Below, piece after piece: positions 9,089 through 18,067 of a stretch of 64,000 nt of DNA (positions are counted from its first letter, which is position 1; every line of letters begins with the position of its first letter). The translations under genes and the position numbers were made by a program. Location: contig DXJL01000113.1 in the NCBI GenBank assembly GCA_019057635.1, forward strand, positions 1 through 64,000. Reading direction: 5' to 3'. A model generated the notes under the pieces. That model did not search any database. It saw nothing but the letters and a program-made list of their open reading frames with translations, and was not told where the DNA came from. The DNA comes from Candidatus Heimdallarchaeota archaeon. Its GTDB lineage: Archaea > Asgardarchaeota > Heimdallarchaeia > Hodarchaeales > Hodarchaeaceae.

Positions 9089-9883
9089 TTATTTTTTCAT
9101 AACTTTTTTGTCCGAGACAAGATTTACTCTTTCAGTTAACGTTATGAATAGTCGATGTAACTTTGTTAGATCTAAATTCTTATTTATTCTGGAATATATA
9201 CGAATAGAAGGATCTTCTGACGAATCGATAGAAATACGTACAACAGAATCACGAATGGCGTATATTTGCTTAAGAAGTGGTTTATCTTTGAGGAAGAAGT
9301 CGCCCATACGTTCAGATGTTGCTTTCATTAAAAAGAATTGATCTAATAATTCAGAATCAAGTATAACGTCTTTTAACTGAAAAAGTAAGTCTTGATGTTT
9401 TTTAATTTGTCCTTCTTCATGATTGGGGATAATTTGTATTTTTGTTGGTAGTTTCCCTTTTTTTGCATTTCCTTCTAACGCAATGTAGTCATTTGCTCCT
9501 GAAAACCATGAGATTATCACAGATAACATTAAATGACGCTCTTCCAACGCAAACACGACACGAAAATCTTTGAATGGAATTTTAGATGATTTTTTATATT
9601 TAGGAAATAATAGGCCACCATTGGAAGTTATTTGATCAGTTACTAAATCATCAAATTCATTAGAAAATATTTCAAGAAGAGCATCCTTTGATACATTGAT
9701 AATTTTATGATTCTTCCTCCTACCAGACCACAACAGGTAAAAAGTAAAAAATAGAACTAATCCTGGTCCTAAAAATATTACCATATAATCTAGAAGCCCG
9801 TATTGCTCAGATTGAAGAAAGAATTGTCCAATGAAAAGAAATTTTTCCATAAAAGGGTCGTATATTGCCATTTTGAATCTCAA
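9089..9883 (-). CDS. Membrane-anchored protein, CCDC47/DUF1682 (PAT complex)-like
   Basis: TM followed by GRRKNHKI..EIFSNEF and LEERHLMLSVIISWFSGANDYI, matching recalled CCDC47 motifs GKNKNSRL..LLESNF and [22 protein letters not shown]. Confidence 0.62.
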   Translation of the reverse strand: MRFKMAIYDPFMEKFLFIGQFFLQSEQYGLLDYMVIFLGPGLVLFFTFYLLWSGRRKNHKIINVSKDALLEIFSNEFDDLVTDQITSNGGLLFPKYKKSSKIPFKDFRVVFALEERHLMLSVIISWFSGANDYIALEGNAKKGKLPTKIQIIPNHEEGQIKKHQDLLFQLKDVILDSELLDQFFLMKATSERMGDFFLKDKPLLKQIYAIRDSVVRISIDSSEDPSIRIYSRINKNLDLTKLHRLFITLTERVNLVSDKKVMKK

Positions 9884-9964
9884 AATGACCTTCTGAATCG
9901 ATGTTTAATATTATTTGCTTCGATCTGATTTCGAATTTTTTAATTTCAGATTTATTCTTAGTTC

Positions 9965-10537
9965 TCAAGATATATCTAGGTAGCTGGCTATTTCTCTATA
10001 TTGAAAAATATCACTTTGAGAATTTCCAACGACTTGAAAAAACTTATATTTGGCGATTCCATCTTCACCAACGTCATTAGGATCAACTACCAGTGCTACT
10101 GAAAGAGGTTGAACTAATTGAAAAGAGTATACATGAGTAGTAATATCAGTTTGTGATAAAAATAATCCATATCCAGGATGTGAATGCCACCAACCCACAC
10201 AGAATTCTGGACCCGATAATTGATCAAAAACTTGAAAATCCTCATCAGAAAAAGATACTGAATATTCATCTCCCTGGGTTACATAAATTCCCTTTGATAT
10301 CATTATTTCTTTTGAGCGAACTTCAATCCCGCTGAGCAAGCCAATAGCCTCTTTTGGTTTGGCTTCGATAGAATAATTGGTAATTTCTATAATTGTTTGC
10401 TGTGATATGGTAACAGAAATTGTCTCTAAACTCAATCGAGACATCTCGTTGTTGGCCTGATCTGAATGTAGGCCGTCAATTGATTGGTCTGTTTCGTCCT
10501 CATTATCAGAATTTTCAGGGGGATCTTTATTTGTCAT
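9965..10537 (-). CDS. JAB1/MPN+ (JAMM) metalloisopeptidase, Rpn11/AMSH-like
   Basis: EAIGLL glutamate plus GWWHSHPGYGLFLSQTD JAMM motif and ALVVDP. Confidence 0.95.
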   Translation of the reverse strand: MTNKDPPENSDNEDETDQSIDGLHSDQANNEMSRLSLETISVTISQQTIIEITNYSIEAKPKEAIGLLSGIEVRSKEIMISKGIYVTQGDEYSVSFSDEDFQVFDQLSGPEFCVGWWHSHPGYGLFLSQTDITTHVYSFQLVQPLSVALVVDPNDVGEDGIAKYKFFQVVGNSQSDIFQYREIASYLDIS

Positions 10538-10632
10538 TAGAATATGATTCCTTAGCTATTCAGTAATTCCAATTCCACCCAGATTCAACTTCATTAGTAA
10601 TACCCCAGCAGACCTAATTGAAACAATAGGAA

Positions 10633-11184
10633 CTAACTCGTTCCATGCTCTTTTGTCCATTTAACAGCTTTCTCCCAGAAATCATTGAAATTGGACTGCA
10701 TGGATTTTCCAGCCTCTGGATTGAATGGATCGCCAGGATCAACGAGGTATTCTGGAAATTCAGAATCTCCTGAACTCTGATAGACATCAAGCATCATTTC
10801 GATATGCTCAAATACACTAGGTAGAGTTATAGTCTTTTTCCATCCACCAAGTTCACCTATATTGTTCCAATTGATTAAACTAAGACAAACATTAGAACCC
10901 CATTTCCAACGAGTTTCACCTATAGCAATATTGGGATGCCAAATTGGTGTAATAAAATTAACAATTGGAGGTTTGAATGGATATTCAGGTGGTAAATCAA
11001 CGGTGATTTTCCATTCCCCGTTTTCATACGGAGTGCCTTCTTTCCCTTTTATTGTAGCAGAGTAGTGATGAAGATCATTATCCACTATTAGCCACTTTAT
11101 GGTAGCACTTTTTGGGGGATAAATCTTTAGCATTCGCTTAAATTCTTCCCTTAATCGTCTGGAATGTAGATCAGACATAAGCAA
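10633..11184 (-). CDS. Ubiquitin-conjugating enzyme E2
   Basis: RRLREEF, GTPYENG, PPEYPFKPP, WHPNI and catalytic VCLSLI. Confidence 0.96.
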   Translation of the reverse strand: MLMSDLHSRRLREEFKRMLKIYPPKSATIKWLIVDNDLHHYSATIKGKEGTPYENGEWKITVDLPPEYPFKPPIVNFITPIWHPNIAIGETRWKWGSNVCLSLINWNNIGELGGWKKTITLPSVFEHIEMMLDVYQSSGDSEFPEYLVDPGDPFNPEAGKSMQSNFNDFWEKAVKWTKEHGTS

Positions 11185-16154: not shown

Positions 16155-16162
16155 ATTAGTTA

Positions 16163-17056
16163 TTATGACGATTTTTCGGCTTTTATTTTTGCGAGTTTTG
16201 ATGAATATTTATCGGCTATTTCTTTATATCGTTTTTCAGAGATTTTACCTCCTAAAAACATCTCATCAGCCTGTTCGAGCATTAATTCGAATTTTTTAAT
16301 TTTTTCTGAAACCTCATCAAATTTATTTCGCTCTTCTGCGAGTTCCTGTTGAGTTTCAATAATTTGCTTTTCAATCTCATACGTAAGTAAGGTTTCGTAC
16401 TCTTCAGGCACTTTAAATCCACCAATATCTAATCCTACTAGTTCTAGGCCCCATCGAGAGCTTTCAGGACCTAATTCAGATCTTGTTTGAATTTCTAAGC
16501 TTCTTCTGTCTTTTAATAACTCAGGTACAGTGTAACGAGTCATAACATGTTTAACAGCTGCTATCACCGTCTGTTTCACCCAATTTTTAAGCTCATTTCC
16601 ACTATAATACTGTTTATGGGAGACTACGTTCATGATAAAATTCCTTGGATTCACAATCCGCATCCGAGAAATTCCCCAACATCCCACCATAACATTGTCT
16701 GAGGTGTAAATACCAGGCGTTCCCCATTTAATGATAAATTCACGTTTTGTAACCCATATAATTTCACTTCCAGGATGCTTCGCTGTTTTTTCCAATTGAT
16801 AAATTCCACTCCCAGCAACTCCAACTAGCACCCCTGACTGTAACAACACGGCATTTTCTGGTTCTTTTACAATAAAGCCGTCAATTTTTCTAAAGTTATC
16901 ATTTTCTTCTGCTTTCACTCTATGAATTAACGATTCACCAAGTGAATCATCAAATTTTGAGCTTAGAATCGCTTTTCCCTTGAATTTCTTGGTACCTATG
17001 TGAATTGTATCCCCTATTTTACGGAATAGTCCACCAAATTTGTCTGTTTCCGCCAT
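16163..17056 (-). CDS. SPFH/band-7 domain protein with C-terminal coiled coil
   Basis: FIVKEPENAVLLQSG, KWGT, RIVNPRNF, RWGLELVGLDIGGFKVPEE; no obvious TM segment. Confidence 0.85.
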   Translation of the reverse strand: MAETDKFGGLFRKIGDTIHIGTKKFKGKAILSSKFDDSLGESLIHRVKAEENDNFRKIDGFIVKEPENAVLLQSGVLVGVAGSGIYQLEKTAKHPGSEIIWVTKREFIIKWGTPGIYTSDNVMVGCWGISRMRIVNPRNFIMNVVSHKQYYSGNELKNWVKQTVIAAVKHVMTRYTVPELLKDRRSLEIQTRSELGPESSRWGLELVGLDIGGFKVPEEYETLLTYEIEKQIIETQQELAEERNKFDEVSEKIKKFELMLEQADEMFLGGKISEKRYKEIADKYSSKLAKIKAEKSS

Positions 17057-17065
17057 CGCTTCTAC

Positions 17066-18067
17066 CTACCAATCTTCATCTCCATATAACCCTGGAAAGT
17101 AATACTGATCTCCTGAATCAAGTGATGACACTTTTCGAGCAACTTTTTGATTGACAAGACTATCTAAGACCCTCATTACTCGTTGTTGATCCCATTTAGT
17201 ATGAATCATAACTTCCTCAAATGTTACATAGCCTTTATCTATTGCTAGATTAAATATGTTCCGGGCATCTTTTCCAAGAGCTACTGGTGTAAACTCGACA
17301 ATTTTTATGCCAGATTGTTTGGAAACTCCTTCAATTAACGATTGTTTAGTTAGTTGTTTACAGGCCTTTTCTAAATCTTTCAATGAAAACTTGATATCTG
17401 GAACTTGATTTTTCAGAGAAGTATACAAGTTTGCCATTGAAATATAACCACCTGAACTTGCTCTAAGAGTTTTTCCTTGTTCAAGGATTAAATCAGCAAG
17501 ATTGTCAACAAATTTCCCTTTCCCAAATATTTTTGGCTTTTTTGTTGCATCTAACGCGGTTATTGTTAGTGTACGCCCTTCTTTTCGGAGTAACTCTCTC
17601 TCTAATTGCTGAATGCGGGAATCATATTTCTTCTGTAAATTCTTAATTCCCTCGGTTGATACTGGAGCTCCGTTAGCCAACTTATTTTGAACTTGAACTA
17701 CCTCTTCTAATCGCGTTATCTGTTCACGAAGATCTAACAACTCACTGCGGAGATCTAATTCTTTATTCCCAAATTCAAGATCATCAATTAATAGTTTAGA
17801 CCGTTCTGTTATTTGGTCACAAAGAATAGTTGCCAGTAGCTGCGCAACACGGATTTCCCCACTTTCCTTTAAATTGGCCATTTTATTATCAGAGTAGAGT
17901 ATTATATCAGGCACAGTTTCGCTTAAATACCTAATCTCTTCAAATTGTGTATAAAATTTAATTACTAGATCTGATATGTGTTTAGCTTTCATTGCAGCAG
18001 TATTACTTAATTGATTTAGCGCATTACTTGCAGTTTGAAATTTTTCTCTCAAAATAAGGGTCACCAC
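17066..18067 (-). CDS. ESCRT-II Vps22/Vps36 (EAP30)-like protein with N-terminal coiled coil
   Basis: GGYISMANLY, FSLKDLEKACKQL, GYVTFEEV..WDQQRVMRVLDSLVNQ, QYYFPGL tandem winged helices characteristic of the EAP30 family. Confidence 0.88.
   Translation of the reverse strand: MVTLILREKFQTASNALNQLSNTAAMKAKHISDLVIKFYTQFEEIRYLSETVPDIILYSDNKMANLKESGEIRVAQLLATILCDQITERSKLLIDDLEFGNKELDLRSELLDLREQITRLEEVVQVQNKLANGAPVSTEGIKNLQKKYDSRIQQLERELLRKEGRTLTITALDATKKPKIFGKGKFVDNLADLILEQGKTLRASSGGYISMANLYTSLKNQVPDIKFSLKDLEKACKQLTKQSLIEGVSKQSGIKIVEFTPVALGKDARNIFNLAIDKGYVTFEEVMIHTKWDQQRVMRVLDSLVNQKVARKVSSLDSGDQYYFPGLYGDEDW

Follow-up and report, generated by a model that had tools for sequence, protein, structure and literature searches.

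Gene content of the block

The stretch of DNA analysed here (the window) comprises positions 1 to 64,000 of contig DXJL01000113.1 from a Candidatus Heimdallarchaeota archaeon of the order Hodarchaeales (GenBank assembly GCA_019057635.1), and the subject of this work is a block of ten genes, referred to as A to J, at positions 9089 to 18067. Judging from conserved motifs and domain matches, the block codes for a complete system that conjugates a dedicated ubiquitin-like modifier (UBL) to proteins. In the same block lie a candidate E3 with a UFL1-like winged-helix array, a short-form homologue of CCDC47, and an SPFH protein paired with a long Vps22-like protein. The original prediction for this DNA had placed ten open reading frames (ORFs) around a divergent promoter; all ten were found at the same coordinates and on the same strands, and the putative promoter stretch was confirmed as an intergenic region. 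The features are as follows.

9089..9883, minus strand: gene A, short-form CCDC47 homologue (ORF; transmembrane (TM) segment at residues 28-54, G[RK][RK]KN motif, cytosolic domain)
9965..10537, minus strand: gene B, JAMM/MPN+ isopeptidase, probable deconjugase (Pfam JAB, 8.4e-10)
10633..11184, minus strand: gene C, UBC-type E2 with HPN and catalytic Cys (UQ_con, 2.3e-24)
11185..11499, no strand: divergent intergenic region between C and D, 315 bp (gene spacing)
11500..12288, plus strand: gene D, zinc ribbon and a domain without an assigned fold (invariant Cys125; LPxxP[FY]xDGP motif)
12311..12640, plus strand: gene E, ubiquitin-like modifier with a variable N-terminal extension and a ...GG end (Rad60-SLD, 1.6e-5; 25.1 bits, cut-off 23.8)
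12676..13914, plus strand: gene F, E1 activating enzyme, 412 aa (ThiF, 7.7e-50)
13911..14243, minus strand: gene G, small zinc-ribbon protein with a basic tail (CxxC...CxxC motif)
14394..16154, plus strand: gene H, UFL1-like winged-helix array and C4C4 RING-like finger, candidate E3 (profile, AlphaFold2 model)
16163..17056, minus strand: gene I, SPFH/Band-7 protein with a C-terminal coiled-coil tail and no TM segment (Band_7, 1.6e-16; Band_7_1, 1.3e-12)
17066..18067, minus strand: gene J, long Vps22/EAP30 paralogue with an N-terminal extension of ~110 aa (EAP30, 1.4e-10)

Leftward from the divergent region, C, B and A follow one another on one strand at distances of 95 and 81 bp, and rightward from it D, E and F are separated by 22 and 35 bp. 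Gene G lies on the opposite strand and overlaps the end of F by 4 bp, H follows rightward after a 150-bp divergent gap, and I and J run toward H (gaps of 8 bp for H/I and 9 bp for I/J). Among the ten block proteins only A has a TM segment. The labels that the original prediction had given to the E2, the JAB isopeptidase, the GG-ending UBL, the E1, the SPFH protein and the ESCRT-II-like protein are borne out by the Pfam matches listed above, and the CxxC...CxxC motif of the zinc-ribbon gene G is present in 21/21 rows of its family alignment. The window copies of A and D have no Pfam match.

The conjugation cascade and gene D

The UBL is 75-96% identical over 17 rows, 16 of which end exactly in GG, ready for conjugation, and its profile finds ubiquitin only, weakly, when compared with the PDB. 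The E1 matches SAE2, UBA1 and UBA3 at 1e-32 to 1e-27, versus 1e-16 for UBA5. Its Cys context, PC[TS][LI]VGxPR, is kept in 20/20 aligned rows and presumably corresponds to the catalytic-Cys context of canonical E1s, which it resembles. The best PDB matches of the E2 are canonical E2s (~1e-16), and the HPN...C motif of C and the JAMM motif HxHx7Sx2D of B are found in 17/17 and 15/15 family rows, respectively. By these comparisons the cascade is of the ubiquitin type and not of the UFM1 type, which weakens the parallel with UFM1 drawn in the original prediction.

Since the E2, JAMM and E1 Cys motifs are all conserved, the UBL is unlikely to be a mere sulfur carrier, which would have counted against the original prediction. 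A role of the UBL and E1 confined to sulfur transfer, as for ThiS/MoaD or SAMP, is scarcely credible: the ThiF/MoeB models of NCBIfam do match the adenylation domain of the E1, far below their cut-offs, but the block also encodes a conserved catalytic E2 and JAMM isopeptidase, the nearest matches of the E1 are UBA2, UBA1 and UBA3, and no rhodanese domain was found in a Pfam scan. The set of UBL, E1, E2 and JAB protein also recalls anti-virus defence of the bacterial Bil or CBASS Cap2-Cap3 kind, and compared with PADLOC models the E1 reached 3.5e-16 for E1-E2 (Cap2) and 2e-8 for BilD, and the JAB protein 1.2e-6. These are generic domain matches, however, and weaker than those of the E1 to eukaryotic E1s at 1e-32, and no PADLOC model matches the E2, the UBL, D, H, A, I or J. 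Furthermore, all genomes of the family have the locus at a fixed place between housekeeping genes, which would not be expected of a mobile defence island, and we regard a function in defence as very improbable.

Gene D had been predicted to encode a zinc-binding ubiquitin E2 variant (UEV). The zinc ribbon stands, with CxxC...CxxC in 17/17 family rows, but the UEV part is not supported. Beyond the ribbon, D has no match in Pfam, NCBIfam or PDB profiles, and hhalign gave a probability of 0.2% against an E2/UEV family alignment and 0.3% against UFC1-like proteins. Two Atlas look-ups returned one match of 0.75 to a UQ_con cluster, below the 0.9 mark, and none, respectively; with this lone weak lead and no E2/UEV signal by Pfam, PDB profile or hhalign, the UEV label finds no support. 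The D family is confined to Hodarchaeales, where it occurs in family f1 (sampled here as 21 genomes plus the present one; D in 20/21) and in genome G078 of the sister family f2. D is always directly upstream of the UBL and E1 genes, and the D-UBL-E1 triad is kept in G078.

The genome encodes two further sets of ubiquitin-related genes on other contigs:

contig C20:12230-30312: ubiquitin and ESCRT cluster
contig C150:5543-9152: further cascade with two UBLs ending in ...STAG, a 412-aa E1, an E2 and a JAB protein

Contig C20 carries Vps25, Vps4, two Snf7 genes, a 239-aa Vps22, Vps28 and a UEV protein and, within a few kb of these ESCRT genes, an 80-aa ubiquitin (PF00240, 4.5e-15), a 346-aa E1, a 70-aa RING protein and a 150-aa E2. 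The three E1s of the genome are mutually 32-39% identical, that of the window being 36-39% identical to the other two. Since a complete canonical ubiquitin-ESCRT cluster and another cascade lie on other contigs, the window block is, by its gene content, a separate system and the genome has three separate UBL cascades. The block therefore differs from the usual ubiquitin-ESCRT cluster, as the original prediction had held, and its statement that the window lacks Vps4 and ESCRT-III was also correct: Snf7 and MIT/Vps4 matches are absent from the contig of the window, and within the genome both are found only on C20.

Gene H

The 583-aa product of gene H comprises a UFL1-like winged-helix array (residues ~1-350), a Cys-rich zinc region (~360-445), a PCI/DDRGK1-type winged helix (460-528) and a C4C4 RING-like finger (530-583). 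With the Pfam model E3_UFM1_ligase the window copy reaches 19.1 bits, below the cut-off of 23.2; across the 36 members of the H family, 20 match PF09743 at E<=0.1 (best 3e-6) and 29 match PCI. When the family profile was compared with the PDB, the top four matches were UFL1 (1.9e-6 to 2e-5), the C-terminus gave weak RING matches (UHRF1, MAT1 and BRE1, 0.015-0.05) and residues 461-526 gave weak matches to DDRGK1. The AlphaFold2 model (predicted local distance difference test score, pLDDT, 84.9; predicted template modelling score 0.73) has several winged helices and zinc regions, and the top five Foldseek matches to it were all UFL1, from 1.8e-10 (373 columns) to 6.5e-8. In VIA, the model matched 8b9x_A with Z 10.7 over 238 residues, 8c0d_D with Z 10.0 (131 aligned, root-mean-square deviation (rmsd) 4.4) and 8ohd_A with Z 9.9 over 282 residues; UFL1 was the only multi-domain match, and residues 460-528 matched PCI-type winged helices. 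Judged by profile and by predicted structure, H has a tandem winged-helix array of the UFL1 type, and the UFL1 resemblance that the original prediction had noticed is significant in both kinds of search. The label of a winged-helix/RING protein is likewise upheld by the model and by the spacing of the C4C4 finger, which is the same in 22/22 rows.

H is the only gene of its kind in this genome, and its 64 database homologues are all from Hodarchaeales-type metagenome-assembled genomes. The full-length protein is found in 21/21 genomes of f1 and in one of the two of f2. Outside these families only the N-terminal part was matched, in ORFs of ~770-815 aa in 28/135 genomes of family f20. One f20 ORF is a fusion of DDRGK, UFL1, PCI and VPS28 (~785-aa proteins). 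The DDRGK-UFL1-Vps28 type is already known from Liu et al., who regard it as a fusion with ESCRT-I (bioRxiv 10.1101/2020.10.19.343400).

The closest known counterpart of H is part of the eukaryotic UFM1 E3 for ribosomes, in which UFL1 acts with DDRGK1/UFBP1 and CDK5RAP3. H shares its tandem winged-helix array by profile and by fold, also has the PCI/DDRGK1-type winged helix, and is encoded together with a UBL cascade. H differs from UFL1 in being shorter and in carrying Cys-rich zinc fingers and the C4C4 RING-like end; to our knowledge, eukaryotic UFL1 has no RING. The enzymes beside H differ as well, since the E1, E2 and UBL are of the ubiquitin type rather than UBA5, UFC1 and UFM1, and the probable deconjugase is a JAMM protein whereas UFM1 proteases are cysteine proteases. 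In Asgard archaea, UFL1/DDRGK1 and Ufm1 homologues have been reported, with a UFM1-independent role proposed for the UFL1-like domain (PMC10183829; bioRxiv 10.1101/2020.10.19.343400; PMC12962969). The Hodarchaeales protein combines the UFL1-like array with a RING-like finger, lacks a Vps28 domain and lies inside a ubiquitin-type cascade beside a CCDC47 homologue; it is not mentioned in the available parts of Picchianti 2023, Liu 2020 or Koestlbacher 2026.

Gene A

The database form of A starts at an ATG 12 bases inside the ORF and is 260 aa long. It consists of ~27 residues, a single TM segment, the G[RK][RK]KN motif (16/16 rows) and the cytosolic domain. Among the 38 members of the A family, 22 match the Pfam CCDC47 model PF07946 at E<=0.1 (best 8.8e-6), the window copy not being one of them. 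An Asgard-only profile of 30 rows, including distant rows from other families, yielded 145 matches among 1.84 billion representatives, and 43 of these were scanned with Pfam. All 28 scanned proteins with a length of 309-491 aa are bona fide members of PF07946 (1e-44 to 1e-81), and three of the 15 short ones match it at <=0.01. The long CCDC47 proteins align over nearly the whole Asgard profile, with a best E of 3.8e-10. One of those retrieved matches human CCDC47 chains at 1.2e-41, by which the PDB chains 6w6l_7, 7tm3_4/7tut_4 and 9i78_4 could be identified as CCDC47.

In a fold search with the model of A, independent of Foldseek, CCDC47 chains ranked first and second of 48,161 (7tut_4, Z 6.1, 120 aligned, rmsd 4.3; 9i78_4, Z 5.2), and in a second look with VIA they were the top three. 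Foldseek itself returned nothing at E<=0.001 for this model, and CCDC47 was not found when the A family profile was compared with PDB sequences. From the profile matches, together with these modest fold matches, we conclude that A is a short-form homologue of CCDC47, so that the CCDC47-like label of the original prediction stands. A shares with CCDC47 (PF07946) the TM-proximal and cytosolic domain and the single TM segment directly ahead of it. In the long CCDC47 proteins the match starts at residues 85-170, which means that the N-terminal luminal part is absent from A. We found no paper that pairs CCDC47 with Asgard archaea in the literature searched; the supplements of Eme 2023, Koestlbacher 2026 and Picchianti 2023 may list homologues of CCDC47 or UFL1. 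In the available part of Eme et al. (section 10), the translocon-linked proteins given are TRAP and OST subunits. The presence of a CCDC47 homologue in Asgard archaea, predicted in this way, stands regardless of its function and changes the inventory for the archaeal ancestor of eukaryotes.

Genes related to A also occur in other settings. Many f1 genomes, although not this one, have a paralogue of ~287 aa (e.g. L043:5452-6312) without UBL neighbours. Distant CCDC47-like genes of families f7 (L041:6747-10214, L042:6879-10115) and f33 (L038:5575-6992) share a context of nucleotidyltransferase and YjeF/Nnr genes, to which a KaiC-like ATPase is added in f7. Also in f7, a 278-aa winged-helix protein is encoded two genes upstream of the A-like gene; it matches PCI above the cut-off and DDRGK and UFL1 below it. 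Immediately upstream of A in G079 of f2 (L034:2235-4140) are a gene for a zf-AN1 protein and an ORF that matches HBS1_N below threshold (9.4e-5, 23.2 bits, cut-off 26.4).

Genes I and J

J matches SNF8 at 7.3e-17 and Vps36 at 0.013. A canonical Vps22 of ~245 aa is present in all 83 Heimdallarchaeia genomes, and several families add a copy of ~345-355 aa. We built a tree from 24 hand-chosen rows (8/22 J-type, five long and 11 canonical copies); the remaining J rows were excluded, as were a split second copy of G078 and all copies that were not retrieved. The 11 canonical copies fell on one side of a branch supported at 100/99, and J and the long copies on the other. Within this sampling, J belongs to an old second Vps22-like lineage apart from canonical Vps22. 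Canonical Vps22 is grouped with Vps25, Vps4 and Snf7 on C20, and J is without the company of Vps25 or ESCRT-III. The block resembles the Asgard ubiquitin-ESCRT clusters (PMC9192718) in having genes for a ubiquitin-like modifier, an E1, an E2 and a Vps22-like protein close together. It differs from them in that ESCRT-I, Vps25, ESCRT-III and Vps4 are absent, the canonical cluster of this genome lies elsewhere (C20), and the Vps22-like gene is of the second lineage, whereas a single Vps22/36-like gene is referred to in the available part of Hatano et al. 2022 (PMC9192718).

The block might instead serve an ESCRT-related, ubiquitin-directed route of membrane remodelling or sorting that has nothing to do with ribosomes, with J and I acting on membranes and H as an adaptor comparable to the DDRGK-UFL1-Vps28 fusions of Asgard archaea. 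The strength of the SNF8/Vps22 match of J would suit such a route, as would the Arf-family GTPases that flank the block and the fusion of a UFL1-like domain to DDRGK and VPS28 in f20. On the other hand, Vps25, ESCRT-III and Vps4 are all on C20 with the canonical Vps22, the lineage of J is separate from it, and the homology of A to CCDC47 points to the translocon rather than to vesicle formation. We consider the ESCRT-related route unlikely.

A long EAP30 gene and an SPFH gene are also paired in families f4 and f6, and in each of the three loci annotated there the pair stands beside a 256-289 aa ThiF E1, a JAB protein, an 86-92 aa ORF and a UFC1-like E2. The loci of these UFM1-type gene sets are:

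L063:5831-10532
L065:8767-13464
L066:5170-10184

With Pfam UFC1 (cut-off 25), the E2s of two loci score 26.1 and 27.3 bits and that of the remaining locus 22.4 bits; all 26 PDB profile matches of these E2s are UFC1, at E ~0.02. A UFC1-like gene was found in 10 of the 83 genomes of the class, in nine of them within 5 kb of a long EAP30 gene. The 86-92 aa ORFs end in ...RGVVG and gave no PDB profile match; they may be Ufm1-like, judging from size, position and C-terminus only. The position of the long EAP30 gene beside these cascades links the J-I module with UBL conjugation without recourse to f1, the cascade concerned being UFM1-like. That the window cascade is an orthologue of the UFC1-type cascade was considered and rejected (hhalign 0.6% for the UBL against the VG-ending ORFs and 15% for the E2 against the UFC1-like proteins). 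UFC1 is called eukaryote-only in Picchianti 2023 (PMC10183829). The existence of UFC1-like E2 genes in archaea bears on the inventory for the archaeal ancestor of eukaryotes, which is also changed by an old second Vps22-like lineage tied to UBL cascades.

Conservation of gene order

The block was compared across 22 related loci of f1. In 15 of them the ten genes are all present, with order and orientation unchanged; the remaining seven are truncated at contig ends and show part of the gene set, again in unaltered order. In one f1 record of 1.39 Mb the block is cut by the end of the record and the A-D part is found elsewhere in it. In G078 of f2 the genes are distributed differently: eIF2-alpha, Nop10, NAT, J, I, H and G are together on one contig, D, UBL and E1 on another, and A on a third, next to GatD/GatE. 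G stays beside H in f1 and in G078. From these comparisons the full block is an arrangement of f1, and the robust modules are D-UBL-E1, G-H-I-J and long-Vps22 with SPFH. The original prediction had spoken of a self-contained system whose genes should co-occur in relatives. Co-location holds within f1, where the flanks are equally collinear, and fails in f2, where the genes are spread over at least three contigs and the sub-modules alone are kept.

Since the flanks are as collinear in f1 as the block itself, shared descent alone could explain the co-location. The cascade would then be a general-purpose second UBL system, with A, I and J as its neighbours by descent in a frozen stretch of the chromosome of a shallow clade. 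The housekeeping flanks are collinear in all 22 loci, the block is split over three contigs in f2, and A-like genes lie elsewhere in the unrelated nucleotidyltransferase/YjeF context, all of which would be expected if this were so. Against it, the sub-modules have outlasted the rearrangement in f2, C, B and A are co-directional with gaps of only 81-95 bp, and the pair of long EAP30 and SPFH accompanies a different UBL cascade in f4 and f6 (9/10 genomes with a UFC1-like gene). We think this explanation doubtful, though to be taken seriously.

Proposed function

In eukaryotes, UFL1 acts on 60S ribosomes at translocons of the endoplasmic reticulum (ER) (PMC10937380), and CCDC47 belongs to the ribosome-bound multipass translocon (PMC7505659, PMC9630114). 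Because of these functions, we tentatively propose, as a possible reading held with some reserve, that H is the E3 of a dedicated UBL system acting at membrane-bound ribosomes or the translocon. In such a system, the E1 would adenylate the UBL, form a thioester with it and pass it to the E2, D being a candidate cofactor of these first steps as it is always encoded just before the UBL and E1. H would then function as the E3, its C4C4 RING-like finger recruiting the charged E2 while its winged-helix array docks on the target, which by analogy with UFL1 would be the large ribosomal subunit at the membrane translocon. The single-pass CCDC47 homologue A would provide the membrane link, the J and I pair would probably be a scaffold or reader downstream of the tag, and the JAMM isopeptidase B would reverse the conjugation.

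Several findings weigh against this proposal. The cascade is ubiquitin-type, and there is no Pfam match to UFC1, Ufm1 or DDRGK in this 91.6%-complete genome. No ribosomal or Sec protein is encoded in the block, and the SPFH protein I is without a membrane anchor. Confidence in the predicted structure of A is low (pLDDT 64.9), and the Z scores obtained with it are modest (5-6, <8). The A-like genes of f28, f32 and f33 and the A paralogue of f1 are without UBL or UFL1-like neighbours, A in G079 has no cascade neighbour, and the winged-helix protein of f7 is only weakly UFL1/DDRGK-like, with 6.9% by hhalign to H. The whole block is kept in f1 only, and there its neighbours on either side (ThrRS, Arf, NAT, Nop10 and eIF2-alpha) are no less collinear over the 22 loci; in G078 A, D-UBL-E1 and G-H-I-J have unrelated neighbours on their three contigs.

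By analogy with the eukaryotic proteins, the block hints at, and does not prove, an archaeal forerunner of ribosome and translocon quality control. A wider view would be that families of Heimdallarchaeia hold scattered parts of the eukaryotic UFMylation of ribosomes at the translocon. A UFC1-like E2 and a putative VG-ending UBL stand beside the long-Vps22/SPFH pair in f3, f4 and f6, and a candidate E3 of the UFL1 type and a CCDC47 homologue stand beside it in Hodarchaeales. On this view, which seems improbable to us at present, the Hodarchaeales block would be a working system that tags membrane-bound ribosomes or the translocon with a ubiquitin-type modifier, and a direct forerunner of ER ribosome quality control. 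If the parts do cooperate, a pathway regarded as ER-dependent that tags stalled or idle ribosomes at the translocon would gain a testable archaeal counterpart, in the lineage currently placed closest to eukaryotes.

Neighbouring genes

Two tandem Arf-family GTPase genes (window 7941-9066) flank the block in every f1 locus that is long enough, and both also match the signal recognition particle receptor-beta model, more weakly. In G078, G-H is followed by genes for an Arf-like protein and a Roadblock/LC7 protein. Downstream of J (window 18392-20705) are genes for a GNAT acetyltransferase, Nop10, eIF2-alpha, ribosomal protein S27e and Gins51. J and NAT are adjacent in f2 as well, and also in f7, where the NAT is longer.

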